DNA of 64,000 bases from Acidobacteriota bacterium (GTDB lineage Bacteria > Acidobacteriota > Terriglobia > Acidiferrales > 2-02-FULL-67-57): the NCBI GenBank assembly GCA_037442885.1, contig JBBIPK010000009.1, forward strand, positions 4,249 to 68,248. The letters are read 5' to 3'. Shown here piece by piece: positions 33,505 to 62,438 of this stretch. Under the pieces are notes generated by a model that had not been told where the DNA came from, made no database searches, and saw only the letters and a list, made by a program, of their open reading frames with translations. Each line of letters opens with the position of its first letter. The stretch's first letter is position 1. Both the position numbers and the translations under genes were made by a program.

Positions 33505-33707
33505 CCACCCTTCTTATTAGACTTTCATCCCTGCGAGAGCCCGGCTGGGTCCAAACTGTGCTATTACTCAAGTGGCAGGCGAGCAAGCCCGGGGGATGAG
33601 AGCAAGGCTGACCGGCTGGGAACGCTGAGCGGGCAGGAGGCCGGGGCGCGCCGGCCGGCGACTGAGCAGCGTGACACCTCCACAGGCTCGTTCGCGTGGG
33701 GCAGGGT

Positions 33708-33736
33708 TTTTCGAGCGAGCACTAAGCCGCTAGAAT
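33708..33736 (+). promoter_or_regulatory. candidate promoter, TTTTCG-N17-TAGAAT (CCGCTAGAATC)
   Basis: TAGAAT at 33731..33736 lies 27 nt upstream of ATG 33764, and the SD is AGGAAAGGAG. The -35 is weak. Confidence 0.35.
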
Positions 33737-33763
33737 CCTGGTTGCAGGAAAGGAGATACGCCG

Positions 33764-36700
33764 ATGGCTTTCCGTGAACATCCCGCCCCCAGCTTGCCTG
33801 AGGAGGAGGGCGTACGCATCGCCCGCCAACTCTACGGGCTCGACGCCACCGCCAAGGGGCTCCCCGGCGAGTACGACGACAACTTTCACCTTTTCGTCGC
33901 GGGCGGGGAGGAATTCACGCTCAAGGTCATGCGCCCTGGCGTCGAGTTCGACTTCATCGACATGCAGTGCCAGGCCCTGGCCCGCGTGGCCGAGCGCGCG
34001 CGGTCGCTCTCGCTGCCTCGCGTGTGCAAGACGCTGGCGGGAGAGGTCGTTGGCAGAGTCCGGGCCGCCGACGGGACAGAGCGCCTGGTCTGGATGTTGA
34101 CGTATGTCCCGGGTCGGGTGCTGGCCAAGACCAACCCGCACACTCCAGAGATGCGGTTCAGTCTCGGCCGTTTTCTGGGACGTATCGACGCCGCCCTGGA
34201 AGACTTCGACCACCCGGCGGCCCGGCGGGAGCTCAAGTGGGACCTCGCCCGCGCCAGCTGGATCCGCGACTACCTGCACCACATCCCTGATCCCGAGGGG
34301 CGCAAGCTCGTCAGTCGGCTTCTGACGATGTACGAAATCGAGGCCGCACCGGCGCTGCCGGCCCTGCGCCGGAGCGTGATTCACAACGACGCCAATGACT
34401 ACAACGTCCTGGTCAGCGAGTCCCGCACCGAGCCTCGGGAGGTGATCAGCGTCATAGATTTCGGCGACATGCTGCACACCCAAACCGTCGGCGAAGTAGC
34501 GGTGGCCGCCGCCTACGCGCTGCTGGGCGAGCGTGATCCGCTGGCGGCGGCCGCGCAGGTTGTGGCCGGATACCACAGGGCCTTTCCGCTCACCGAGCGA
34601 GAGATTTCGCTCCTCTTCCCGCTCATCTGCGCCCGGCTCTGCGTCAGCGTGACCAATTCAGCCTACCGGAAGACGATCGAGCCCGGCGATCCCCACGTCA
34701 CCATCAACGAACAGCCGGCCTGGGAGGCCTTGCAGCGATTGGCCGCCCTGCATCCGCGCTTTGCGCACTACACCCTCCGCCAAGCTTGCGGACTGTCTCC
34801 GGTGCCCGACGCTGAGTCGGTAGTGGCCTGGCTGCGCGCGCAGGCGAACGAGCTGGCGCCGGTGCTCGCCGATCTGCGAGGCTCGCCGAGTCTGGTCTTC
34901 GACCTGAGCGTGGGCAGCCTGCTCCTGGGGGCGAACCCGCAGGCGGCGGAGTCAGTCGCCTTGACGCTAACGCTCTTCGGGCAGATGCGCGCACAGGGTG
35001 CGCAGATCGGCATCGGGCGCTACGACGAGGCGCGGCTGCTCTATCCCTCTCCCGCCTACGCCACGGGAGAAAATCCCACCGATGAACGCCGCACCGTACA
35101 CCTGGGGATTGACCTCTTCGTCGCGCCGGGCACGCCCGTCCATGCGCCCCTGGCGGGAAACGTGCACTGTCTGGCCAACAATGCCGCCGACAAGGATTAT
35201 GGCCCGCTCATCATCTTGCAGCACGCCACCGACGCCGGCCGCCCCTTCTACACGCTTTATGGCCATCTGAGCGAGGAGTCCATCGGCAGGCTCACTCCCG
35301 GACAATCCCTGGCGCGCGGCGAGCGCTTGGGCAGCGTGGGCGCGCCGCCGACGAACGGCAACTGGCCGCCGCATCTCCACTTTCAACTCATCCTCGATTT
35401 GCTGGATCTGGACCGCAACTTCCCCGGCGTGGCGCTGGCCAGCCAGCGCGACGTGTGGCGGAGTCTCTCGCCTGATCCCAACGTCATCCTGGGACTCCCG
35501 GCGGAGCATCTTGCCTCGCGGGAGCCGACCAAGACGGAAATCTTGGCCTCGAGACGCCGGCACATCGGTCGAAACCTGAGACTTTCCTATCGGGAGCCGC
35601 TCCAGATCGTGCGCGGCTGGATGCAATACCTCTACGATGAGACGGGCCGGACCTACCTGGACGCTTACAACAACGTGCCGCACGTTGGGCACAGCCACCC
35701 GAGCGTCGTCAGGGCCGCGCAGGAGCAGATGGCCCTACTTAATACCAACACGCGCTATTTGCACGACAACCTGGCTCGCTACGCCGAGCGGTTGTGCGTC
35801 CGGCTGCCGGAGCCTCTCCGCATTTGCTTCTTCGTCAACTCGGGCAGCGAAGCGAACGAGTTGGCGCTGCGCCTGGCGCGGGCTCACACCGGCCGGGAGG
35901 ACGTCATCGTGCTCGAGGGAGCCTATCACGGACACACAACGGCCCTCATCGACGCCAGTCCGTATAAATTCTTTGGCCCGGGTGGCGCGGGGGCAAAAGC
36001 GTGGGTTCACGTGGCGCCGCTGCCCGACGACTACCGAGGCCCTTACCGACGAGACGATCCCGAGGCGGGCCAGAAGTACGCCCGGGAGGTTGCCCGGCTG
36101 GCGCAGGAGATCCAAGCGGAAGGTGGCGGCGTGGCTTGCTTCCTTTGCGAGCCGCTTCCCAGCACGGCCGGGCAGATTGTGCCGCCACCCAGCTACCTGG
36201 CGGATGCCTACCGCTACGTGCGCAAAGCGGGCGGGCTCTGCATTGCCGATGAGGTGCAGGTGGGCTTCGGCCGCCTGGGCAGCCATTTCTGGGGATTTGA
36301 GACGCAGGGCGTGGTGCCCGACATTGTGGTGCTGGGCAAACCGATTGGCAACGGCCATCCTCTGGGTGCGGTGGTGACCACGCCCGAGGTCGCTGCCTCC
36401 TTTGACACCGGCATGGAATTCTTCAGCACCTTCGGCGGGAACACCGTCTCCTGCGCCGTGGGCTTGGCGGTCCTAGAGGTCATCGAAAAGGAGCGTCTCC
36501 AAGAGCACGCCCAGCGCGTGGGAAGCCATCTCCTGGCCGGCTTGCGCGGGTTGTTGGACAAGCATCCTGTGGTCGGCGATGTGCGGGGTCTCGGCCTGTT
36601 TGTGGGGGTCGAGCTGGTTCGCGATCGCACTACGCTGGAGCCGGCTCCCAGCGAGACCTCCTATGTGGTAAACCGGCTGCGCGAGCGGGGCATCCTCACC

Positions 36701-36826
36701 GGCACTGAGGGACGATTTCAGAACGTGATCAAGATCCGCCCGCCCCTCCCCTTCAGCGAGGCGGACGCGGACCTCGTGGTCAAGACGCTAGATGAAGTCC
36801 TTCGCGAAGACCTGGCCCAGACCTAG
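33764..36826 (+). CDS. tri-domain protein: APH/hydroxylysine-kinase-like phosphotransferase, then M23 peptidase domain, then class-III PLP enzyme of the ETNPPL/PHYKPL (ammoniophospholyase) type
   Basis: 1020 aa. Kinase motifs are HNDANDYN (aa 207-214) and IDFGD (231-235). M23 motifs are HLGID (446-450), YGHL (499-502) and PHLHFQL (536-542). The aminotransferase part (about aa 600-1020) aligns by eye along its length with human ETNPPL ([39 protein letters not shown]-like [19 protein letters not shown]-Lys in [20 protein letters not shown]). Confidence 0.85.
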
Positions 36827-36845
36827 GAGTTTGTGCAAAGGCACG

Positions 36846-36880
36846 CCTTCTCCCTTCTCTCTCTTTCCCTCGCCGCCCGC
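36846..36880. repeat. degenerate period-7 pyrimidine repeat (CCTTCTC x2, then TCTCTTT, CCCTCGC, CGCCCGC)
   Basis: Begins 20 nt after the stop at 36824..36826. Only the first two units are identical. Confidence 0.35.
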
Positions 36881-37024
36881 GCCGGTGGTAAAAACTTCGA
36901 CACTCGCCGGGCCCGCCATTGCGACCTGAGCTTGACGTCACAGGGCGGTTTGCGCATGATTCCGCGGAAAGGCAAAGTTGGAATCGGAAATTCCAGTTAG
37001 AAAGCGAGTGACAGGAGGTGACCA

Positions 37025-37789
37025 ATGCGCGGCCTCAAGGGCAAGAACGTGCTGGTGACGGGTGGAGCCAGTGGCATAGGCCAAGCCACCGCGACGCGTT
37101 TCCTGGAAGAGGGCTGCGCCGTTTGCGTCCTCGATCGCAACGCCGCGGCGCGAGCCCGCGTCGCCCAGGAGATGCCTGGGTTGACCGCGATGATTGACGC
37201 CGACGTCTCCAGCCTGGAACAAGTACAGACGGCCTTCGCAGAGGCGATTGATCGCATGGGCTCAGTCGACGTCCTCATCAACAACGCCGGCATTAGTATC
37301 CGCCACGACTTCCTCGAGATCACCCGCGAGGAGTGGGACGCCGTCCTGGCTGTCAACCTCAACGGAGTCTTCTACGTGGCACAGACCGCCGCGCGCCACA
37401 TGATGGACAAGGGCTCCGGCGTGATTCTCAACACCGCCTCCACGGCAGCTTCCACCGGCTACCCACACTATGCCGATTACAGCGCCAGCAAGGGAGGCGT
37501 GATCGCTTTGACCCGGGCAATGGCTTTGGAGCTGGCTCCCGTGGTCCGCGTGAACGCGGTCTCCCCCGGCTACGTACTCACCCCCATGCAGCGCGCCGAG
37601 TACACGGACGCGATGCTGGACGCCGTGAACCGCAAGATCCCCTTGCGGCGACACGCGAAACCGGAGGAGATTGCCGCGCTGTTTGCTTTCCTGGCCTCCG
37701 AGGACGCTGCCTTTGCCACTGGCCACGTCTATGTCCTCGACGGCGCAGAAACCACCGGGGGCCTCTGCAGCCAGTGGGTCCACGAGTAG
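37025..37789 (+). CDS. SDR family oxidoreductase
   Basis: 254 aa. Contains TGGASGIG, NNAG and YxxxK (YADYSASK). Confidence 0.9.
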   Translation: MRGLKGKNVLVTGGASGIGQATATRFLEEGCAVCVLDRNAAARARVAQEMPGLTAMIDADVSSLEQVQTAFAEAIDRMGSVDVLINNAGISIRHDFLEITREEWDAVLAVNLNGVFYVAQTAARHMMDKGSGVILNTASTAASTGYPHYADYSASKGGVIALTRAMALELAPVVRVNAVSPGYVLTPMQRAEYTDAMLDAVNRKIPLRRHAKPEEIAALFAFLASEDAAFATGHVYVLDGAETTGGLCSQWVHE

Positions 37790-37820
37790 TTTTCAAGCTT
37801 AAAGATAGGAGACTGAGCGC

Positions 37821-38582
37821 ATGAGGCTGAAAGGAAAGGTAGCTCTAATAACCGGAGGGACCTCGGGAATCGGCAGGGCCACCGCCAAACTTTTCGCCCG
37901 CGAGGGGGCGGCGGTCGCGATCACCGGGCGCAATGCTGAGCGGGGGGAGCAGGTGGTTCAGGCTATCGTCGCCAATGGCGGCCAGGCCCTATTCATACGT
38001 TCCGATGTGCGCTTTGCCGACGAGTGTCGCCGGGCGGTCGAACAGACTCTTGAGCGCTTCGGCAAGATTGACGTCCTGTTCAATAACGCCGGAGTGTTCC
38101 ATCCCAAGACCGTCCCGGAATGCACCGAAGAGGAATGGGACGAGACCATCGACTCCTCTCTCAAGGGCGCCTTCCTGATGTCGAAATACGTGCTGCCCTC
38201 GATGATCGAGCGCGGCAGTGGCTCGATCATCCACAATAGCTCTGGCTGGGGAATCCAGGGAGGCGACAAGGCGGCGGCCTACTGCGCCGCCAAAGGTGGA
38301 TTGGTGGTGATGGCCAAGGCGATGGCGATTGACCACGGCCCCGACGGCATCCGCGTGAACTGCGTCTGCCCGGGCGATGTGCAAACCCCCATGCTGCGTG
38401 ACGATGCTGCCAAGCGGGGCCTGTCCTGGGAGGAATACGCTGCCGCTGCCGCCAACCGACCACTCGGTCGCATTGGCACCGCCGAGGAAATCGCTAACGC
38501 GGTGCTGTTTCTGGCCTCTGACGAGTCCTCCTTCGTGACCGGCGAGGCGCTGGTCGTCGACGGTGGGGGCGTCGCCGACTGA
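37821..38582 (+). CDS. SDR family oxidoreductase (paralogue of the preceding gene)
   Basis: 253 aa. Contains TGGTSGIG, NNAG and YCAAK. Confidence 0.9.
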   Translation: MRLKGKVALITGGTSGIGRATAKLFAREGAAVAITGRNAERGEQVVQAIVANGGQALFIRSDVRFADECRRAVEQTLERFGKIDVLFNNAGVFHPKTVPECTEEEWDETIDSSLKGAFLMSKYVLPSMIERGSGSIIHNSSGWGIQGGDKAAAYCAAKGGLVVMAKAMAIDHGPDGIRVNCVCPGDVQTPMLRDDAAKRGLSWEEYAAAAANRPLGRIGTAEEIANAVLFLASDESSFVTGEALVVDGGGVAD

Positions 38583-38656
38583 GCAGCCCCGCCGCGCCGC
38601 CTGCGCAACTCTTTTCGGCCCTCTTCCGCTGACATCTGATTGCTGACCTCTGACCG

Positions 38657-39182
38657 CCGAGGAGAAGCGCGGCGCGAAGTGGCCGACCGCAATGATGTGG
38701 CCCGCGTAGCAGACGGCGCAGAAAACCGTGAACAGGTCGCCTCGATTGATGACAAACCGTTCCGCAGGGATCGTGAGGAAATAGAGGCCTGCCACGGCCA
38801 TCACGACGCCAGCGGCTGGGCCGAGATGAATCCGGCGCCCGAAAAACAAGGCGAGAAACAGAGGAACCAAGGCTACAGACAACCCGGTGATGAAGGCGGA
38901 TTTGGCGGGAGTTGTATACTGCAGTCCGATTGTCTGGAAACTGAACCCCGCAGCCAGAAACGCCCCAATCACGATTCCGGCCTGCGCGAGTCCGGCCTGG
39001 CGCAGACCCGCCCGGCGGCCTGCGACCAGCAGCAACACGGCCAATGCCAAGCAGAAGCGCAGGAGCAAGAAGAGAAGAGGAGAAGCGTAGGCGAGCGCAT
39101 CCTTGACGACGACAAAGGTGCTGCCCCAGACAAAGCTGATGAAGGCCAGCAGCAGGTCGGCCTCGAGGCGTTTGCGGGTCAA
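38657..39182 (-). pseudogene. EamA/DMT transporter, first 5-TM half only; the ORF lacks a stop and continues antisense through the SDR gene to 37989
   Basis: The first ~175 aa of track ORF 37989..39182 are typical EamA (LLAFISFVWGSTFVVVKDAL..., five hydrophobic segments). After ...GHIIAVGHFAPRFSS the sequence becomes non-membrane and R/G/A-rich and is antisense to 37821..38582. Confidence 0.55.
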
Positions 39183-45532: not shown

Positions 45533-46435
45533 ATGCGCCCGTACAAGAACCTCCTCCCCGACTCCTACCTCCACCAGGAACTAGAAAGCCTGCTGCGCAA
45601 GAAGGGCGGCACGATCTCAGGCGAAGAGGTCTGCCGCGAGCTCTTCCACCTCACCGCGGCTCCGCCCGTGCTGGCCCGCACCTTGGTCGAGGAATTCATC
45701 CGCGACCAGCCCCACCTGCGGCTGACCGCGGAGGACGGCATCGAGTGGGCCGAGCCTGACCCGCAGGAAGTCTGGCGCCAGCGCCGCCACTTCCTCGTCC
45801 TCGATCTCGAGGCCACCGACGGTAGCCGCCGCGACCAGCGCATCATCGAAATCGGTCTCTGCCGCATCGAAAACGGCCGCATCACCCGCGAATGGAGCCA
45901 ACTGCTCAATCCCGACCGCCCCCTCTCCCCCTGGGTGCGGCAGCTAACCGGCATCCGCGAGGCCGAGCTTCGCCAGGCGCCGCACTTCGCGGATGTGGCC
46001 GAGCAACTCCTCGAAGAACTCGAAGACGCCATCCTGGTCGCCCACCACGCCCGCTTCGACGTCGCCGTCCTCAGCCACGAATTCAGCCGCCTGCTGGGCC
46101 GCCGCCTCGGCAACCGCTACCTCTGCACCGTCGAGCTGTCGCGGCACTTCCTGCCCGGGATGGAAAACTATAGGCTGGAGACCTTGAGCCGCACGCTCGG
46201 CCTCACCCACGAGCGGCCGCACCGCGCCGGCTCCGACGCCCGCGCCACCGCCGAACTTTTCACCCGCCTGGCCCAACACTCCGACGGAGCCCTGGCCGCC
46301 CACCTGCGTCCTCGCCCGTTCACGGTGAACCGGTTCAGGGTGAACCCGCCGCAGTCCCGAAGCCTCGGAATTGGCGAGGCCCACCCACCCAGCCGCCCAG
46401 GCCCTGAAGGAAAGCGGAGCACGCCTCATGCCTGA
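45533..46435 (+). CDS. DnaQ-like DEDDh 3'-5' exonuclease with N-terminal extension
   Basis: From ATG 45533, Exo I is FLVLDLEATD, Exo II is LVAHHARFDVAVL and Exo III is HRAGSDARATAELF. The upstream part of the track ORF reads through the repeat element. Confidence 0.8.
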   Translation: MRPYKNLLPDSYLHQELESLLRKKGGTISGEEVCRELFHLTAAPPVLARTLVEEFIRDQPHLRLTAEDGIEWAEPDPQEVWRQRRHFLVLDLEATDGSRRDQRIIEIGLCRIENGRITREWSQLLNPDRPLSPWVRQLTGIREAELRQAPHFADVAEQLLEELEDAILVAHHARFDVAVLSHEFSRLLGRRLGNRYLCTVELSRHFLPGMENYRLETLSRTLGLTHERPHRAGSDARATAELFTRLAQHSDGALAAHLRPRPFTVNRFRVNPPQSRSLGIGEAHPPSRPGPEGKRSTPHA

Positions 46436-46470
46436 TTTACGCGAAAAAATCCGCTCTGAAGGGTAAAACG

Positions 46471-46920
46471 ATGCGAAGCAAAGCCAAGACCGTCACTCAA
46501 TACTTGGCTGCATTGCCCGCCGACCGGCGCAAGGCCATGCAGCGAGTCCGCGCCGCCATCCGCAAGCATCTGCCGAGAGGGTACGAAGAAACCATGCAGT
46601 ACGGCATGATGAGCTATGCCGTGCCGCTGAGTCTCTATCCGCCCGGCTATCACTGCAAAAAAGATGAGCCCCTGCCGTTCATCTGCCTGGCCTCGCAAAA
46701 AAATCACATGGCCATCTACATGTTCTGCCTGTACGTCAACAGCAAAGATGAGGCGAGCTTGCGCGCCGCATACAAAGCCAGCGGGAAAACACTGGACATG
46801 GGCAAGAGCTGCATTCGATTTAAGAAAGTGGAAGACCTTGCGCTGGACGTCATCGGCAAGGCCATCGCCGGCATGCCCGTCAAGAAATTCATTCAGGTAT
46901 ACGAAGCCACGCGTGCATAG
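46471..46920 (+). CDS. DUF1801 (YdhG-like) domain protein
   Basis: 149 aa. Contains AKTVTQYLAALPADRRKAMQRVRAAIRKHLP...CIRFKKVEDL. Confidence 0.7.
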   Translation: MRSKAKTVTQYLAALPADRRKAMQRVRAAIRKHLPRGYEETMQYGMMSYAVPLSLYPPGYHCKKDEPLPFICLASQKNHMAIYMFCLYVNSKDEASLRAAYKASGKTLDMGKSCIRFKKVEDLALDVIGKAIAGMPVKKFIQVYEATRA

Positions 46921-47139
46921 AGCTCCGCGGAAATGTCTGTTAGGGGGATGAGGTGCGGCTTGTATTTCAACCGGGGAAGCAAGAATTGCCTTCCGTATTT
47001 TCGATTCTTCACTTTAATAAGCCTCAGCTCAAGATGAAGTAAATAGCCGCTGAAAAAGAAAAGAATGAAACCTCACCTGCCCGGGTTTCGTAAGTCTAAA
47101 TAGGTTGATTGGACAATCTGCTCAATGAGGAGTCTAGCA

Positions 47140-48915
47140 ATGACCCGAACGACCCTAGGCCGTGCGACCGCCGTTATCCTGAGCCTGCTCTTGCTCGCGC
47201 TGCCCCTATCGGCGCAGAACGTTGATTTCACCAAGGGGAAGAGGCACTTCCCGTTCTTCTTTTCGCCCTACACGGCGCGGTTTGTGCCGCAGCCAAGCCT
47301 CGCCAATTCTCCGCGCATTGAAACCCTCATCCGCGAGGGCAAGCTCTATCTGAGCTTGCAGGACGCCATCTATCTGGCGCTCGAGAACAACCTCGACATC
47401 GTGGCGGCACGCTACGGCCCCGACATTGCCGAGACCGACGTCCTGCGCACCAAGGGCGGCGCGCTGGCGCGCGGCGCCGGCGGCGTGGGCACGGCCACGG
47501 CCCTGGGCGCGGGCACGGTCGGCTCGTTCGACCCCACCATCAGCTACAGCCTCAACTGGACCCGCCGCGATGTCCCTCAGACCACCACCTTCATCACCGG
47601 CACCAACGAACTCAAGACTACCCCCATGACCAATAACGTCACCATCTCCCAGTCCTTCGCCACCGGCACCAGCGTTAGCTTCATCTTCGACTCCTCCCGC
47701 ACCTCCACCAACTCCCTCCGCTCCTCCTTCAACCCTTCGTTCACTTCCAGCCTCCAGGTCGGCTTCAGCCAGCGCCTGCTCAGCGGCTTCGGCCTCGGGC
47801 CCAACCTCCGCTTCATCCGCGTGGCCAAGAACAACAAGCAGATCAGCGACCACGCCTTCCTCCAGCAGGTGATGGACATCATCAGCAACGTCAAGAACGC
47901 CTACTGGGAACTGGTATTCGTCCGCGAGGACGTCAAGGTGAAGGAGCAGTCGCTGGCGCTGGCCGAGCGCCTCTACCAGGACAACAAGCGCCAGGTCGAA
48001 ATCGGCACCCTCGCCCCCATCGAAGTCGTGCGCGCGGAATCCGAAGTCGCCCGCACCCGCCAGGACCTCATCGTCAGCCAAACCAGCCTCCTCCAGCAAC
48101 AGATTACGCTCAAAGACCTCATCGCCAAGAACCCCATGGACCCGCTGCTCGCGCTGGTCGAGGTTGTCCCCACCGATAGCGTGCAGGTGCCGGAAGTGCC
48201 CGAAGTCCTCCCCATCCAGGATGCGATTCAGATTGCGATGGAGAAACGCCCCGAGATCATCCAGGCGCAGATTGACCTGAAGAACCGCGGCATCACCATC
48301 TCGGCGGTGAAGAACTCCATGCTGCCCAGCCTGGACGTCTTCGGCTTCTATACCGGCTCGGGGTTGGCGGGCCAGATCAACCAGTTGGCGGTCGGCGACC
48401 CCTTCTTCACCTTCCCCGACAGTCAGTTTATCGGCGGGTTCAACCGCAGCATGACCCAGGCCTGGCAGGGCGATTTCCCCAACTACGGTTTCGGGGTCAC
48501 GCTCACGATTCCGCTCAAGAACCGCTCAGCCCAAGCCGATACCGCCCGCGCGCTGATCGAAGAGCGGCAGGCGCAGGTGCGCTATCGCCGCACGGTCAAC
48601 TCCATGATCGTCGAGGTGCGCAACGCCCAGATCTCGCTCGAGCAGACTCGGGCGCGGATTGACGCGGCCGAGAAGTCGCGCCGCCTGTTCCAGGAGACTC
48701 TCGACGCCGAGCAGAAGAAGTTTCAGCTCGGCGCCTCGACCATCTTCCAGGTCATCCAGGCGCAGCGCGACCTTGCCCAGGCGGCCACGCAGGAGGTGCG
48801 CGCCCGGGTGGACTTCGTCCGCGCCCAGGTCAGCTTCGACCGCGCCCTAGGACGTACGCTCGAGCGCAGCAGCATCACCGTCGAGGGCGCCCACACCGGC
48901 GTCGCTAACCCGTAA
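47140..48915 (+). CDS. TolC-family outer-membrane efflux protein
   Basis: Contains the signal peptide MTRTTLGRATAVILSLLLLALPLSAQ and two repeats of the OEP helix/strand module (LSLQDAIYLALENNLDI...; IQDAIQIAMEKRPEI...). ATG 47140 is preferred because GAGGAG lies 7 nt upstream; the track ORF starts at 47125. No adjacent MFP or pump gene is present. Confidence 0.85.
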   Translation: MTRTTLGRATAVILSLLLLALPLSAQNVDFTKGKRHFPFFFSPYTARFVPQPSLANSPRIETLIREGKLYLSLQDAIYLALENNLDIVAARYGPDIAETDVLRTKGGALARGAGGVGTATALGAGTVGSFDPTISYSLNWTRRDVPQTTTFITGTNELKTTPMTNNVTISQSFATGTSVSFIFDSSRTSTNSLRSSFNPSFTSSLQVGFSQRLLSGFGLGPNLRFIRVAKNNKQISDHAFLQQVMDIISNVKNAYWELVFVREDVKVKEQSLALAERLYQDNKRQVEIGTLAPIEVVRAESEVARTRQDLIVSQTSLLQQQITLKDLIAKNPMDPLLALVEVVPTDSVQVPEVPEVLPIQDAIQIAMEKRPEIIQAQIDLKNRGITISAVKNSMLPSLDVFGFYTGSGLAGQINQLAVGDPFFTFPDSQFIGGFNRSMTQAWQGDFPNYGFGVTLTIPLKNRSAQADTARALIEERQAQVRYRRTVNSMIVEVRNAQISLEQTRARIDAAEKSRRLFQETLDAEQKKFQLGASTIFQVIQAQRDLAQAATQEVRARVDFVRAQVSFDRALGRTLERSSITVEGAHTGVANP

Positions 48916-48981: not shown

Positions 48982-49016
48982 GGTCGCTGGTCGCTGACCA
49001 CCGGTCGCTGGCTCGC
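48982..49016. repeat. heptanucleotide tandem array GGTCGCT (5 units, 3 perfect)
   Basis: The units are GGTCGCT, GGTCGCT, GACCACC, GGTCGCT and GGCTCGC, in exact 7-nt register. The array ends 3 nt before the -35 at 49020. Confidence 0.6.
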
Positions 49017-49019
49017 CCG

Positions 49020-49048
49020 TTGACCTCTCTCGAGCCATGCCCTATGAT
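49020..49048 (+). promoter_or_regulatory. candidate promoter, TTGACC-N17-TATGAT, for the mutase operon
   Basis: TTGACC at 49020..49025, a 17-nt spacer, then TATGAT at 49043..49048. The icmA ATG is at 49087. Confidence 0.5.
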
Positions 49049-49086
49049 GCGTTCAAGCAGCTTCGGAGGCGGGCAGCGAGGCCACG

Positions 49087-50793
<1,707 letters not shown>

Positions 50794-50830
50794 CCAAGAG
50801 ACTCACCGCAGAGGCACAGAGAACACAGAG

Positions 50831-58489: not shown

Positions 58490-58897
58490 ATGCCCACCCC
58501 CGTCGAGACCACCCTGCGCGTGCGCTACGCCGAGACCGACCGCATGGGCGTCGCCTACTACGCCAATCACTTCGTCTGGTTCGAGGTGGGTCGGGTAGAA
58601 TGGTTCCGCCAGCACGGCTTCGTCTACAAGGAAATGGAAGAGCAGGATGGCGCCTACATCATCGTGGCCGAGGCGCGCTGCAGCTACAAAGCCCCCGTCC
58701 GCTACGATGACCTGATCATTATTCGCACCTGGTTGCAGGAAGCGCGCACGCGGACCCTGGTATTTGCCTACGAGATTCTCCGCCAGCTCGACCGCGCGCT
58801 GCTCGCCACCGGCGAAACCACCCACGTCATCACCGACCGCGACGGCCGCCCCCGCACGCTGCCCGACCGCTACCGCGCCCTCTTCAGCCTCACATGA
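58490..58897 (+). CDS. 4HBT/YbgC-family acyl-CoA thioesterase
   Basis: 135 aa. VRYAETDRMGVAYYANHFVWFEVGRVEWFR is a hotdog-fold YbgC/FadM signature. Confidence 0.85.
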   Translation: MPTPVETTLRVRYAETDRMGVAYYANHFVWFEVGRVEWFRQHGFVYKEMEEQDGAYIIVAEARCSYKAPVRYDDLIIIRTWLQEARTRTLVFAYEILRQLDRALLATGETTHVITDRDGRPRTLPDRYRALFSLT

Positions 58898-60438
58898 GGA
58901 AAGCAATGACCGTTGAGTTGACCGGAAGCAGCCTTACAGTTGAACAGTTTCGGGCTGTCGTCTTTGACGGAGCCGCGTGCCGCCTAGGCGCCCGCGCCCG
59001 CCGCGCGGTGGAGCGCTCGCGCCGCACCATCGAACAGTTCGTCGCCCACGATGCCGTCGTCTACGGCGTGACGACGGGCTTCGGGGAACTGGCTAGCGTC
59101 AAAATCTCTCGCAATCAACTCCGCGACCTGCAGCTCAACCTCCTGCGCAGCCACGCCGCCGGCATGGGCGAGCCCCTGACCGAGGCCGAAACGCGCGCCA
59201 CGCTGCTCCTCCGCGCCAATGTGCTGGCCAAGGGATACTCCGGGGTGCGACCGGCCGTCATTGACCTGCTTTGCGAGCTGCTGAACCGCTGCGTGCATCC
59301 CGTCATCCCCGCGCGCGGCTCGGTAGGAGCGAGCGGCGACCTGGCGCCGCTCTCGCATCTCGCGCTGGTGCTCGTGGGCGAGGGCGAGGCTATCGTCGAA
59401 GGCACCCGCCTGCCGGGTGCCAAGGCGCTCGCACAATCCGGCCTGAAGCCCCTGCGCCCGGAAGCCAAGGAAGGCCTCGCGCTCATCAACGGCACACAAC
59501 CTTCCCTGGCGGTCGGATTGCTCACCCTGCTCGATGCCGAAACCCTCGCCGACACCGCCGACGTGGCTGCCGCCTTGACCCTTGATGCCCTGCGCGGCAC
59601 GCCCACCGCCTTTGACGCCCGCATCCACGACTTGCGTCCCTTTCCCGGACAGAAAAAGAGCGCGCGCAACCTCTTGCGGTTGAATCAGGGAAGCGAAATC
59701 CGCGAGTCGCACCGTTCGCCGGCCAAGGACCCCCGTGTGCAGGACGCCTACAGCCTGCGCTGCACCCCCCAGGTGCACGGAACGGTGCGCGATGCGCTGG
59801 CCCACGCCCGCCGCGTGCTCACCATCGAGATGAACAGCGGCACCGACAATCCGCTGGTCTTCGGCAAAGAAGTTCTCTCCGGCGGCAACTTCCACGGCCA
59901 GCCGGTGTCGCTGGCGATGGATCTGGTGGCCATCGCGCTGGCCCAGTTGGGCGGCATCAGCGAGCGGCGTGTCGAGCGGCTCGTCAATCCCGCGCTCAGC
60001 GGCCTGCCGGCATTTCTCACCAAGCAGGCCGGGTTGAATTCCGGCTTCATGATGGCGCAGGTGACCGCAGCGGCGTTGGCGTCCGAGAACAAAGCCCTGG
60101 CGCACCCGGCTTCGGTGGACTCCATCCCGACTTCGGGACAGGAAGACTTCGTCAGCATGAGTATGGGCGCGGCCTTGAAGGCACGGCAGGTGGCCGATAA
60201 CGTCAAGACCATTCTGGCGGTGGAGTTGCTCTGCGCCTGTCAAGGGATTGACTTGCTCGCCCCGCTGAAGACCGGCCGCCTGGCTCAGCGCGCTGTGCAA
60301 GCCGTACGCCGCACGGTCCCCAAACTCGACGCCGACCGCCCCCTCACCCCCGACATCGAGGCTGCCCGCCAGCTCATCTCCGCGCGAACTTTTCAGAAAC
60401 TCGTCTCCCGCTCCAATCAAGTAGTCAGCAGTAAGTAG
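58894..60438 (+). CDS. hutH: histidine ammonia-lyase (MIO enzyme)
   Basis: Contains the MIO triad in GSVGASGDLAPLSHLA. NLLRSHAAG carries the Ser-His selectivity pair of HALs, not the FL/HL pair of PAL/TAL. ATG 58894 overlaps the upstream stop (ATGA); ATG 58906 has a GAGGA SD. Confidence 0.92.
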   Translation: MRKAMTVELTGSSLTVEQFRAVVFDGAACRLGARARRAVERSRRTIEQFVAHDAVVYGVTTGFGELASVKISRNQLRDLQLNLLRSHAAGMGEPLTEAETRATLLLRANVLAKGYSGVRPAVIDLLCELLNRCVHPVIPARGSVGASGDLAPLSHLALVLVGEGEAIVEGTRLPGAKALAQSGLKPLRPEAKEGLALINGTQPSLAVGLLTLLDAETLADTADVAAALTLDALRGTPTAFDARIHDLRPFPGQKKSARNLLRLNQGSEIRESHRSPAKDPRVQDAYSLRCTPQVHGTVRDALAHARRVLTIEMNSGTDNPLVFGKEVLSGGNFHGQPVSLAMDLVAIALAQLGGISERRVERLVNPALSGLPAFLTKQAGLNSGFMMAQVTAAALASENKALAHPASVDSIPTSGQEDFVSMSMGAALKARQVADNVKTILAVELLCACQGIDLLAPLKTGRLAQRAVQAVRRTVPKLDADRPLTPDIEAARQLISARTFQKLVSRSNQVVSSK

Positions 60439-60455
60439 TCGGTTGTCAGAGCCGG

Positions 60456-60490
60456 TTTCGAGTTTCGATTTTCGAGTTTCGTTCTTCGAT
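60456..60490. repeat. heptanucleotide tandem array TTTCGAK (5 units)
   Basis: The units are TTTCGAG, TTTCGAT, TTTCGAG, TTTCGTT and CTTCGAT, in exact 7-nt register. The array fills the 53-nt gap between the convergent hutH and hydrolase stops. Confidence 0.65.
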
Positions 60491-60491
60491 T

Positions 60492-61514
60492 TCAAGCGAG
60501 GGCGCGATGGAGGAAGGGAACGAAACGCAGGCCGGCGAGCCAACTGAAGGGGAAATAACCCAGCGTGTAGTGACCGCAGGGCAGCAGGAGCCGCTCGTAG
60601 GGAATCTGCCAGCGCTCGAACTCCGCCCAGAGCTCGGCCGAAAACTCCGGCAGGAAGGCGCGGTCGTAGCGGCCGGAGATGAGCAGGCACTGCTTCCCCG
60701 CCCCGGCCATCCGCCGCACGTAGGGAAACGGACTGATGGGCAACCAGTAGTGACGCAACTCTGCCGGAGTAACGTGCGCGCGCAGGCTCTCCCATACATG
60801 CGCAGTCGTCATCCCCGTGCGCACTACATCGGCGAAATAGGTCGAGACGTGGAGGAACACGCCGGCCCGGAGCGCCGGCTCGTGGGCGAGCGTGATGAAG
60901 GCAATCGCCGACCCCAGGCTCGTGCCGAGAATCCCCAGCCGGCGGTAGCCTTGCTCGCGCAGCCAGGGCACGAGCCGCCGCACGTCCAGCACCGCTTGCC
61001 GCGAAGCCTCAAGCGTCAGCCCCACGTTCGGGCACACCATCTGGTCGGCGCGCTCGGCACCGGGCGGCTGGCGCTCGTCGTGGTAGGGCAGGCTGAGACG
61101 CACAGCGGTCATCCCAAAGCGCGCCAGGGTGCGACAAATGTTGACGTGGCTTTCCGGCTCGGCATTCCACTGCGGCAGGACAATGACGGCGCGCTCTCCT
61201 CGACGCGATCCAGGCGCGCCCGACTCGAAGATGCGCGCATACACGGTGTTGTTCTCCGGAAACGCGGTCTGAATCGCGCTTGGGAAGAGCAGGCGGTCGC
61301 CTTCCCGCCGGTACCACGGCGCGGGCTCGGTCGCAAAGAAACGCTCACTGTCGGCCACTGCCTGCGCCGCATACTCCGCCAAAAACGCCCGCGGCTCGAC
61401 TCCGGGGCCGTCCGTTCCCAGGTACTCTATCCCCCAGCCGAAGGGCTGGAGCCGCCGGCGCGTCTCCCGCCGCCAATGCGCCCGTTCGACGGATTGGATG
61501 AAGTAGCCAAACAC
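60492..61514 (-). CDS. alpha/beta-fold hydrolase
   Basis: 340 aa with a GTG start. It has the nucleophile elbow GxSxG (ILGTSLGSAIAF) and overall alpha/beta-hydrolase spacing. The subfamily is unknown. Confidence 0.7.
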   Translation of the reverse strand: MFGYFIQSVERAHWRRETRRRLQPFGWGIEYLGTDGPGVEPRAFLAEYAAQAVADSERFFATEPAPWYRREGDRLLFPSAIQTAFPENNTVYARIFESGAPGSRRGERAVIVLPQWNAEPESHVNICRTLARFGMTAVRLSLPYHDERQPPGAERADQMVCPNVGLTLEASRQAVLDVRRLVPWLREQGYRRLGILGTSLGSAIAFITLAHEPALRAGVFLHVSTYFADVVRTGMTTAHVWESLRAHVTPAELRHYWLPISPFPYVRRMAGAGKQCLLISGRYDRAFLPEFSAELWAEFERWQIPYERLLLPCGHYTLGYFPFSWLAGLRFVPFLHRALA

Positions 61515-61563
61515 GGTAAGCGGGGACTGTAGTGATTTTGAAAGCGGTGTGTCAATCCCAGGC

Positions 61564-61617
61564 TGTACGCTGTACCTCGTACTTTGTACCGTGTGCCTTG
61601 TACTTTGTACCTGCTAC
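61564..61617. repeat. heptanucleotide tandem array TGTACYN (7-8 degenerate units)
   Basis: The units are TGTACGC, TGTACCT, CGTACTT, TGTACCG, TGTGCCT, TGTACTT, TGTACCT and (T)GCTACGG, with starts at 61564, 571, 578, 585, 592, 599 and 606. The array lies in the divergent region between the hydrolase and GT2 genes. Confidence 0.65.
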
Positions 61618-61631
61618 GGCGTGCGGGGATT

Positions 61632-61640
61632 TGCGATAAT
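61632..61640 (+). promoter_or_regulatory. candidate extended -10, TGCGATAAT
   Basis: It ends 9 nt before ATG 61650 and no SD lies in between. This would give a leaderless or near-leaderless mRNA. Confidence 0.3.
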
Positions 61641-61649
61641 CGGGCGCGC

Positions 61650-62438
61650 ATGAAGCTGACCGCTACCCTCATCACCCGCAACGAGGAGCGGAATCTCCCC
61701 CGCGTACTGGCCTCCCTGCGCCTGGCGGACGAAATCATTGTGGTGGACGCGGGGAGCAGGGACCAGACCGTGGCCATTGCCCGCCAGCAGGGCGCACGCG
61801 TCCTGGAGAGGCCCTGGACGAATTTTGCCGAACAGAAAAATTTCGCCGCCGCGCAGGCGACCCACGACTGGATTTTCAACCTCGATGCCGACGAAGCTTT
61901 GAGCCCAGCGCTCGAAGCCGAACTCCGCGCCTGGAAGGAAGCTGAGCCGCAGGCGGTCGCTTACCGGATGCCGCGCAAGGCGCGCTATCTGGGCGAATGG
62001 ATTCGGCACTCGGGCTGGTATCCGGACCCCAAGATTCGCCTCTACCGGCGCGACCGCGCCCGCTTTGTCGGCGCGCTGCACGAGACCATCAGAACCGAGG
62101 GGCCGGTGGGAGATTTCGAAGGCGAAATTCTACATTTTACCTGCGACTCGCTCGCCGACCACGTGGCCCAAGTCAACTTCTTCACCACGCTTGCCGCCCG
62201 CGAACTCTACGCGCAGGCGGGAAACCACCGCCGCCGCGGCTGGCTCTTGCCGGCCATGCTCGCCCCGCCGCTCACGTTTCTGCGCACCTACTTTCTCCAG
62301 CAAGGCTTCCGCGACGGCTATCGAGGTTTCCTGATTGCGGCGATGGCCGGGTTTTACGTCTTCCTGAAGTACGCCAAACTCGGCGTGCTGGCCGGCGGCG
62401 GCACGCTCGACGAGCCCACGGCATGGCGTCAACCCTGA
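61650..62438 (+). CDS. family 2 glycosyltransferase (LPS-core WaaE/KdtX-like)
   Basis: From ATG 61650: MKLTATLITRNEERNLPRVLASL...IIVVDAGSRDQT...FNLDADE (DxD). Confidence 0.8.
   Translation: MKLTATLITRNEERNLPRVLASLRLADEIIVVDAGSRDQTVAIARQQGARVLERPWTNFAEQKNFAAAQATHDWIFNLDADEALSPALEAELRAWKEAEPQAVAYRMPRKARYLGEWIRHSGWYPDPKIRLYRRDRARFVGALHETIRTEGPVGDFEGEILHFTCDSLADHVAQVNFFTTLAARELYAQAGNHRRRGWLLPAMLAPPLTFLRTYFLQQGFRDGYRGFLIAAMAGFYVFLKYAKLGVLAGGGTLDEPTAWRQP

Follow-up and report, generated by a model that had tools for sequence, protein, structure and literature searches.

An alpha/beta-hydrolase gene in a 64,000-nucleotide (nt) stretch of DNA from an uncultured Acidobacteriota bacterium (Terriglobia/Acidiferrales-like) is bracketed by two different tandem arrays of 7-nt units, which raises the question of what such arrays are, how they came about and whether they serve the genes between which they lie. 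The whole stretch, hereafter referred to as the window, has a GC content of 63%. Array A, built of TTTCG-type heptamers, adjoins the hydrolase stop codon and separates it from a convergent ammonia-lyase gene, here called hutH; array B, built of TGTAC-type heptamers, lies between the hydrolase gene and a divergent GT2 glycosyltransferase gene (Table 1). We hold it to be on balance probable that both arrays are heptanucleotide simple sequence repeats (SSRs), array B being slippage-born spacer DNA and array A a conserved terminator-tail element of the convergent transcript. Heptanucleotide repeats are a long-noted and unexplained excess in bacterial intergenic DNA, which is extended here to soil Acidobacteriota, and the locus provides a clean comparative case, with the expansion of array B between conserved divergent promoters and the retention of both the 5-nt core and the copy number of array A. 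The two arrays appear to have different histories, array A looking old and conserved and array B most likely being a lineage-specific expansion; this was missed by the first-pass annotation of the locus, as were two more heptamer arrays elsewhere in the window.

Tandem Repeats Finder (TRF) reports array A at 60455/60456-60490/60493 with the unit GTTTCGA (3.9 copies, 90% match; alternatively period 14, 2.8 copies, 88% match), and array B at period 7 (6 copies, 71% match) as well as period 21 (2.3 copies, 85% match). Array B has 31/42 self-matches at lag 7, more than any of 300 local shuffles reached at any period from 4 to 15, while the lag-7 scores of array A, 22/28 and 25/35, were equalled at that lag in 2/300 local shuffles. 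The first-pass annotation had reported both arrays, and reading the sequence together with TRF and the shuffles places them above chance where it had put them; its identification of the hydrolase and GT2 genes was likewise confirmed. It had also described the arrays as AT-richer than the coding DNA, which agrees with GC contents of 37% for array A and 47% for array B against 67% for the hydrolase gene. Two details needed correction: array A does not fill the whole space between the convergent stops, of which it occupies 35/53 nt (60439-60491), and a weaker 7-nt register runs on upstream of it into the end of hutH. Array B is followed by two degenerate units.

The period itself is in excess. 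Chains of one exact 4-mer repeated four times at 7-nt spacing occur three times in the window (38629, 60456 and 61565) against 0.05 expected, and, multiples of 3 aside, no other period has any. The same count over about 580 kb of related loci yields nine chains at period 7, four at period 6, two at period 8 and one at period 10, with none at periods 5, 9, 11 or 13. TRF arrays of at least 3.5 copies number 12 at period 7, 6 at period 6 and 3 at period 8, and in about 650 kb of related contigs no other tandem-repeat period is as frequent as period 7; four period-7 arrays lie in the window. A period-7 enrichment, which the annotation had suggested looking for, is therefore present in the 64-kb window and in about 650 kb of relatives. 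Chance periodicity in AT-richer intergenic DNA could be argued from array A alone, whose lag-7 score is equalled by about 1% of the shuffles. However, the exact chains, the 300/300 shuffles exceeded by array B and the retention of the array A motif in five lineages exclude chance as the explanation of both arrays, and we give it next to no credence.

At least three to four head-to-tail units, a noncoding position, a period-7 excess and whole-unit differences between relatives characterize intergenic heptanucleotide SSRs, and all of these are found here. Both arrays lie between confirmed gene ends and are noncoding; only a weak upstream extension of array A overlaps the last codons of hutH. This extension continues the 7-nt register with 15/22 lag-7 matches over 60420-60447, and hutH has its final 6 sense codons and its stop codon within the stretch 60420-60454. 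Replication slippage or tandem duplication would add or remove whole units in repeats of this class. Two other principles that might have joined the arrays were tried and rejected. They are not all-frame stop-codon arrays: neither A nor B contains stop codons, and open reading frames (ORFs) cross array B on both strands. Palindromic cores (TCGA, GTAC) are not a common principle either, as the other two arrays of the window have no palindromic core and TCGA is not kept in the relatives of array A.

Array B between two divergent promoters

The history of array B can be followed through orthologous loci. The hydrolase scores above the NCBIfam cut-off for the RcgR subfamily, its start position is kept in 17 homologues, and its orthologue loci in GTDB genomes and metagenomes are nearly all from Acidobacteriota (Terriglobia, Acidiferrales). 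A sister species has a hydrolase 89% identical to that of the window by protein search, and its contigs (L025 and L110, with L031 and L109 from a second sample) align collinearly with the window, nucleotide identity being about 87%. More distant relatives, with hydrolases 64-74% identical, were also compared (L026, L027, L028, L111, L112 and L113).

Both promoters around array B are conserved. The TTGACA/-10 pair of the hydrolase gene keeps its position in orthologues both near and distant, the distant ones showing TTGACA-N17-TATATT followed by a short leader. On the GT2 side, the extended -10 element TGCGATAAT proposed in the first-pass annotation was confirmed at its distance of 9 nt from the ATG, and the promoter reading is supported by the 13-mer GATTTGCGATAAT, which is identical in the window, the sister (L025), L026, L027, L112 and L113. 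The GT2 and hydrolase genes appear nearly leaderless, and a Shine-Dalgarno sequence is missing from both; with the short leaders of the distant orthologues, this suggests that leaderless or short-leader mRNAs are common in this group.

The DNA between these two conserved elements varies freely. From the hydrolase -35 to GATTTGCGATAAT it measures 72 nt in the window, 51 in L025, 27 in L026, about 83 in L027, 46 in L112 and 33 in L113, and the spacers have no common sequence. Among the relatives compared, TGTAC units occur only in the window (seven) and in the sister (three), and the alignment of the two across array B contains one clean 21-nt gap. The possibility raised in the first-pass annotation, that unit number changes, is thus realized between species; two strains of the sister species with 3/1401 aligned bases different both have three units. 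Exact-protein look-ups for the window's own genes and for the 100% identical protein turned up no further strain of the source organism. The TRF period of 21 nt, with its higher match than period 7, suggests that a block of three units was duplicated, and because the two 21-nt copies differ at 3/21 positions this duplication is not recent.

Because the length and sequence of the spacer are free to vary among relatives, array B is most likely slippage-born spacer DNA, that is, a lineage-specific expansion which would act as a spacer and not as a switch. An ancestral three-unit tract may have grown by 21 nt, equal to three units or two helical turns, and undergone point changes later. In its role as spacer, the array would set the separation of the two promoters and make the DNA upstream of both AT-richer. 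With the hydrolase -35 and the GT2 extended -10 both downstream of it, the array stands outside the two core promoters and therefore cannot act as a classical promoter-spacing switch. The region is only quasi-palindromic (z-score about -2) and upstream of both predicted transcription starts. An NtcA/CRP-type reading of the array (GTA-N8-TAC) was checked by hand and ruled out by the spacing.

These observations bear directly on the suggestion that the arrays are contingency loci, at which frequent slippage would turn expression of the hydrolase or of the GT2 surface-glycan genes on or off. Array B does stand beside a glycosyltransferase promoter, its unit number differs between species, and at another heptamer array exactly one unit (7 nt) separates two loci that are 96% identical (L035 and L036). 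However, the units of array B are degenerate and its 21-nt halves go back to an old duplication, the array is neither inside an ORF nor between a -35 and a -10, and the two sister strains, 99.8% identical, agree in unit number. Array A, for its part, is downstream of both stops and has five units in each of two lineages with only 74% identity between their hydrolases. The caveat in the first-pass annotation that degenerate units argue against frequent slippage fits these data, while its contingency idea does not, and we consider the latter very improbable.

Array A behind the hydrolase stop codon

The two-unit core of array A, TTTTCGNNTTTCG, is invariant in the window, L111, L026, L027 and L028, where a five-way alignment places it beside the hydrolase stop within surrounding DNA that cannot be aligned. 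L111, whose hydrolase is 74% identical, also has five units (TTTCGAT TTTCGAG TTTCGCT TTTCGAG TTTCGGT), and L026, L027 and L028 have two to three TTTCG units at the site. TTTCG heptads are found in all relatives with an intergenic gap after the hydrolase stop, the core motif adjoins that stop with either hutH or a rhomboid gene as the convergent neighbour, and at other positions in about 620 kb of loci the motif is only about as frequent as by chance. Given that the core is invariant in five lineages and that five units are kept in L111, array A looks old and constrained in its 5-nt core, with a copy number that seems stable between two deep lineages; the conserved core and stable copy number argue against a hypermutable tract.

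The rhomboid gene (zinc-ribbon plus rhomboid) lies between hutH and the hydrolase gene in the sister (L025 11017-12100), L028 and L112. The window is without it at 60412-60498, and its hutH has an 8-residue C-terminal extension (60412-60435) relative to the sister, whose hutH stops earlier; the final 6 of these residues fall in the weak extension of the heptamer register. In the sister species array A is missing and the rhomboid gene overlaps the 3' end of the hydrolase gene, likewise in L112 and L113. The idea that array A is filler born when the rhomboid gene was lost was revised, because the TTTCG units in L111 and L028 predate that loss.

Array A is T-rich on the + strand, the sense strand of hutH, and reads CGAAANN on the hydrolase strand. 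It does not fold alone (z = -0.4 and -0.1). Together with the 3' coding end of hutH, its first units form an imperfect hairpin with 18-nt arms that are 78% complementary; the centroid structure has z = -2.6, and 3/200 shuffles fold as well. The U-rich remainder of the array comes after this hairpin, an arrangement that is terminator-like for hutH. L111 has a long hairpin (z = -4.7), then a U-rich tail and then the array, and short hairpins ahead of the tail can be read from the sequence of L026, L027 and L028. A hairpin precedes the array on the T-rich strand in every lineage, and its sequence differs each time. The hairpin and the T-rich tail on the sense strand suggest that array A is probably the U-rich tail of a terminator or insulator, which would end the convergent transcript (that of hutH here) before the hydrolase gene. 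Rfam 15 gave no match at gathering score in the whole window, and a permissive Rfam search of 60350-61750 gave one chance-level match (E < 1), inside the hydrolase ORF.

Several points weigh against the combined reading of a repeat-born spacer and a terminator tail. Lineages in which the rhomboid gene overlaps the hydrolase 3' end manage without array A; the hairpins of L026 and L028 are weak, with folds no better than those of shuffles; and a simple consensus terminator scan calls nothing at array A. A U-tract has no need of the invariant CG. The period-7 scan covered 64 kb of the source genome, so that a genome-wide enrichment is an extrapolation. Finally, the pattern of five conserved plus two variable positions, present in both arrays, is what would be expected from a sequence-specific reader of the 5-nt core.

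This last pattern (TGTAC+NN, TTTCG+NN) is at the centre of an alternative in which the arrays would be an operator-like platform. By analogy with the omega repressor (see below), a protein would read the 5-bp core at 7-bp spacing and polymerise, array B co-regulating the hydrolase and GT2 genes and array A acting as a roadblock or second operator. Array B begins 8 nt upstream of the hydrolase -35 and extends to the GT2 -35 zone, the core of array A is specific to its site besides being invariant in five lineages, and heptanucleotide families of Geobacter metallireducens have been annotated as putative global-regulator sites (PMC2700814), all of which speaks for this alternative. However, the four arrays of the window have four unrelated units, so that one reader cannot explain all of them. 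TGTAC is missing from the spacer beyond the sister species although both promoters are kept, and neither unit is found at any other promoter of the window. The excess of changes at positions 6-7 in array B is not significant when its post-hoc choice is allowed for, and units copied in the 21-nt duplication do not count as independent. No candidate heptad-binding protein has been identified, no protein search having been made. We judge such a platform unlikely, and retain the terminator-tail reading for array A and the spacer reading for array B.

Two narrower candidates for array A were also rejected. A promoter-like site inside the array on the minus strand is not conserved in the relatives. 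A HutP-type RNA site (NAG triplets at 7-nt spacing, beside hutH) was considered; AG occurs in alternate units only and is missing from the conserved core of L026-L028, and the element travels with the hydrolase stop codon, not with hutH. If the conserved TTTCG heptads turn out to serve as a terminator tail or as a protein-binding platform, a function open to testing would exist for at least some heptamer arrays; otherwise, the arrays are an ordinary example of a known repeat class.

Other heptamer arrays in the window and around hydrolase orthologues

The third heptamer array of the window lies at the right junction of a 5.1-kb segment, and the fourth, a looser one, just upstream of the -35 of a methylmalonyl-CoA mutase promoter (TTGACC-N17-TATGAT; gene 49048-50793). 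TGTACNNTGTAC and TTCGANNTTCGA have no further occurrence within the window. Three-unit patterns searched across all loci match only orthologous sites plus L078, which removes a dispersed family from consideration. Hence the suggestion in the first-pass annotation that the arrays form a repeat family of this lineage stands as far as the period is concerned, which is enriched in an STRR-like manner in the window and its relatives, and falls for the unit, none being common to dispersed loci.

At the site of the fourth array, the sister (L110 12860-12895) has TCACCGA TCACCGG CCACTCG TCACTGG and a longer spacer. The 5.1-kb segment (context 33535-39178) is missing from the sister species; it carries an APH/M23/aminotransferase fusion and two short-chain dehydrogenases and truncates an EamA transporter gene, whose remnant ORF runs through the array at 38629-38655. 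Array A and the array at 38629 are both at sites of structural difference from the sister (the rhomboid gene and the 5.1-kb segment, respectively). A simple explanation would be that heptamer arrays build up where intergenic DNA is young or has been rearranged.

Heptamer arrays of unrelated sequence are also found within 200 nt of the orthologous hydrolase gene in at least nine independent lineages. Downstream of the gene these are ACGTGCG x9 in L092, GTCAGNG x5 in L093, TGCTGAT in the L095/98/99 group, GCCGTGC x7 in L100, one in L106, and CGAANNN in L078; upstream they are AACTGTN in the L035/36/42 group, GGGATTN x6.7 in L071, and those of L085 and L090. Arrays in L093, L095, L099 and L100 come as inverted pairs that could form long hairpins. 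Near the gene, noncoding DNA has 0.78 period-7 arrays per kb, compared with 0.10 elsewhere, and the other periods have no near-gene bias. Within array-bearing loci, the near-to-far split is 12 to 5, where the expected near share is 31% (P ~9e-4, uncorrected), and a hand estimate after collapsing related loci gives P ~0.005. Since gene calls were crude and noncoding exposure rough, short gaps inflating the 'elsewhere' class, this enrichment is taken as suggestive only.

One hypothesis built on this recurrence is that heptamer arrays are tied to RcgR-family hydrolase genes by period and not by sequence, either as insulators or terminators, with the inverted pairs as hairpins, or as rearrangement scars around a mobile cassette gene. 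The number of lineages, the near-gene density and the inverted pairs would fit, as would the position of array A and array 38629 where the sister differs structurally. On the other hand, the gene calls and exposure are approximate, related loci and inverted pairs are not independent and leave only the collapsed P value, arrays are missing from the majority of orthologous loci (L001-L024 and many more), and the hypothesis offers no mechanism by which one gene family would draw repeats. We find it quite unlikely. Still a little more doubtful is the broader proposal that the arrays recurrently flanking these hydrolases across Acidobacteriota, with their deeply conserved TTTCG core, are not neutral slippage debris but a cis element read via its 7-nt periodicity, with a heptad-reading protein or an RNA-binding multimer acting on it as terminator, insulator or regulator. 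The reading of both window arrays as SSRs, with a spacer and a terminator-tail role, remains the one that we prefer.

Table 1. Coordinates of arrays, genes and regulatory elements in the window and of heptamer arrays at related loci (locus handle before the coordinates).
Feature	Position	Strand	Sequence or remark
Array A	60455-60490		GTTTCGA GTTTCGA TTTTCGA GTTTCGT TCTTCGA; five heptamers (NTTTCGN x5), adjoins hydrolase stop codon
Degenerate stretch in array A register	60420-60454		AGTAGTC AGCAGTA AGTAGTC GGTTGTC AGAGCCG
Imperfect hairpin	60396-60466	+	hutH 3' coding end (GAAACTCG...) pairs with first array A units (...CGAGTTTC)
Array B	61564-61612		TGTACGC TGTACCT CGTACTT TGTACCG TGTGCCT TGTACTT TGTACCT (TGTACNN x7)
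Two decayed units in array B register	61613-61626		GCTACGG CGTGCGG
Hydrolase promoter (predicted)	61526-61555	-	TTGACA-N18-TACAGT; -10 ends 11 nt before GTG
GT2 extended -10 (predicted)	61632-61640	+	TGCGATAAT; 9 nt before ATG at 61650
Ammonia-lyase gene, histidine/aromatic amino-acid (hutH)	58894-60438	+	convergent with hydrolase, 5' of array A
Alpha/beta-hydrolase gene	60492-61514	-	340 aa, GTG start, stop codon 60492-60494; RcgR-family putative lactone hydrolase
GT2 glycosyltransferase gene	61650-62438	+	divergent from hydrolase; sister contig called with same start
Third heptamer array	38629-38655		CTGACAT CTGATTG CTGACCT CTGACCG; junction of 5.1-kb segment with truncated EamA gene
Fourth, looser heptamer array	48982-49016		GGTCGCT GGTCGCT GACCACC GGTCGCT GGCTCGC
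Array flanking hydrolase orthologue	L035 178-202		
Array flanking hydrolase orthologue	L036 2419-2450		
Array flanking hydrolase orthologue	L071 2392-2438		
Array flanking hydrolase orthologue	L092 2083-2141		
Array flanking hydrolase orthologue	L093 1392-1496		
Array flanking hydrolase orthologue	L095 3461-3535		
Array flanking hydrolase orthologue	L098 3465-3516		
Array flanking hydrolase orthologue	L099 3461-3566		
Array flanking hydrolase orthologue	L100 2367-2540		

Some further observations concern other parts of the loci. A dispersed GC-rich hairpin element with CTCTGTG/CACAGAG-type repeats is intergenic in different species, with copies in L111 (1170-1269; z = -4.7 to -7.7), L027 (60-140) and L110 (12815-12915) and a weak one in the window (50803-50819); the motif CCGTGCCTCNGTGGTGA is common to the L027 and L110 copies, and the element looks like a REP-like family of these Acidobacteriota. 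In the window, a DUF1801 gene of atypically low GC content (46408-46920), with a spacer of 45% GC (46921-47103; region 46318-47103), is missing at the collinear sister position and is possibly a recent insertion. The neighbouring gene for an outer-membrane efflux protein (47104-48915) contains tandem repeats at 47456-47482, 47685-47733 and 48799-48847 (GCGGCGC x3.9 and two 21-nt repeats), which are presumably coding repeats.

Comparison with known classes of heptamer repeats

The contingency SSRs of pathogens such as Haemophilus and Neisseria resemble the present arrays in being short tandem repeats near a glycosyltransferase promoter whose unit number differs between lineages. Contingency tracts, however, are perfect, lie within ORFs or core promoters and vary within populations, whereas arrays A and B are degenerate (90% and 71% match), lie outside core promoters and are stable where comparable.

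Operators of the omega repressor, a ribbon-helix-helix protein of plasmid pSM19035, are runs of heptads located upstream of promoters, two units being the minimal site. They share with the arrays contiguous 7-bp units with a conserved 5-bp core and, for array B, the position at a promoter. The likeness is one of resemblance only: the unit sequences differ, the locus is chromosomal, array A is at a gene 3' end, and no cognate protein is known.

The STRR sequences of heterocystous cyanobacteria are also intergenic tandem heptamers. They reuse few units at many loci, whereas across the window and about 620 kb of relatives the TGTAC and TTTCG arrays are each confined to their own, orthologous locus, and the hosts differ as well, the close relatives here all being Acidobacteriota/Terriglobia metagenome-assembled genomes and not cyanobacteria.

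In Geobacter metallireducens, runs of four GGACCGG repeats occur at 49 sites and of five MTYCTGA repeats at 15 sites, these being the x4/x5 families already mentioned as putative global-regulator sites (PMC2700814), and in Beggiatoaceae TAACTGA direct repeats are found just upstream of start codons (PMC4679880). Such short runs of two to six heptamers beside genes, with a proposed regulatory role, are like those of the present locus, and the CTGA core of the array at 38629 resembles the MTYCTGA and TAACTGA units. The Geobacter and Beggiatoaceae repeats, however, are multicopy with one consensus per genome, whereas arrays A and B are each confined to a single locus.

The closest likeness is to the heptameric SSRs of which many bacteria have an excess in their intergenic DNA, and which vary in length and sequence between close species (PMC4692102). 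Polymerase slippage has been proposed as their source (Mrazek, Guo & Shah 2007, as cited in PMC4692102), and the examples named in that account include the GGGAATC repeats of Xanthomonas and the GGGGA(T/C)T repeats of Nostoc (PMC4692102). A full-text literature search returned no report on heptamer repeats in Acidobacteria. The present arrays differ from those of Xanthomonas and Nostoc in that their units are not G-rich, so that no quadruplex is possible, and from genome-wide SSR motifs in that each array has its own unit. They agree with the intergenic heptanucleotide SSRs in their noncoding 7-nt tandem units, in the preference for period 7 over other long periods, in a site that is filled in relatives with arrays of differing length and sequence, and in the occasional inverted pairs between convergent genes.

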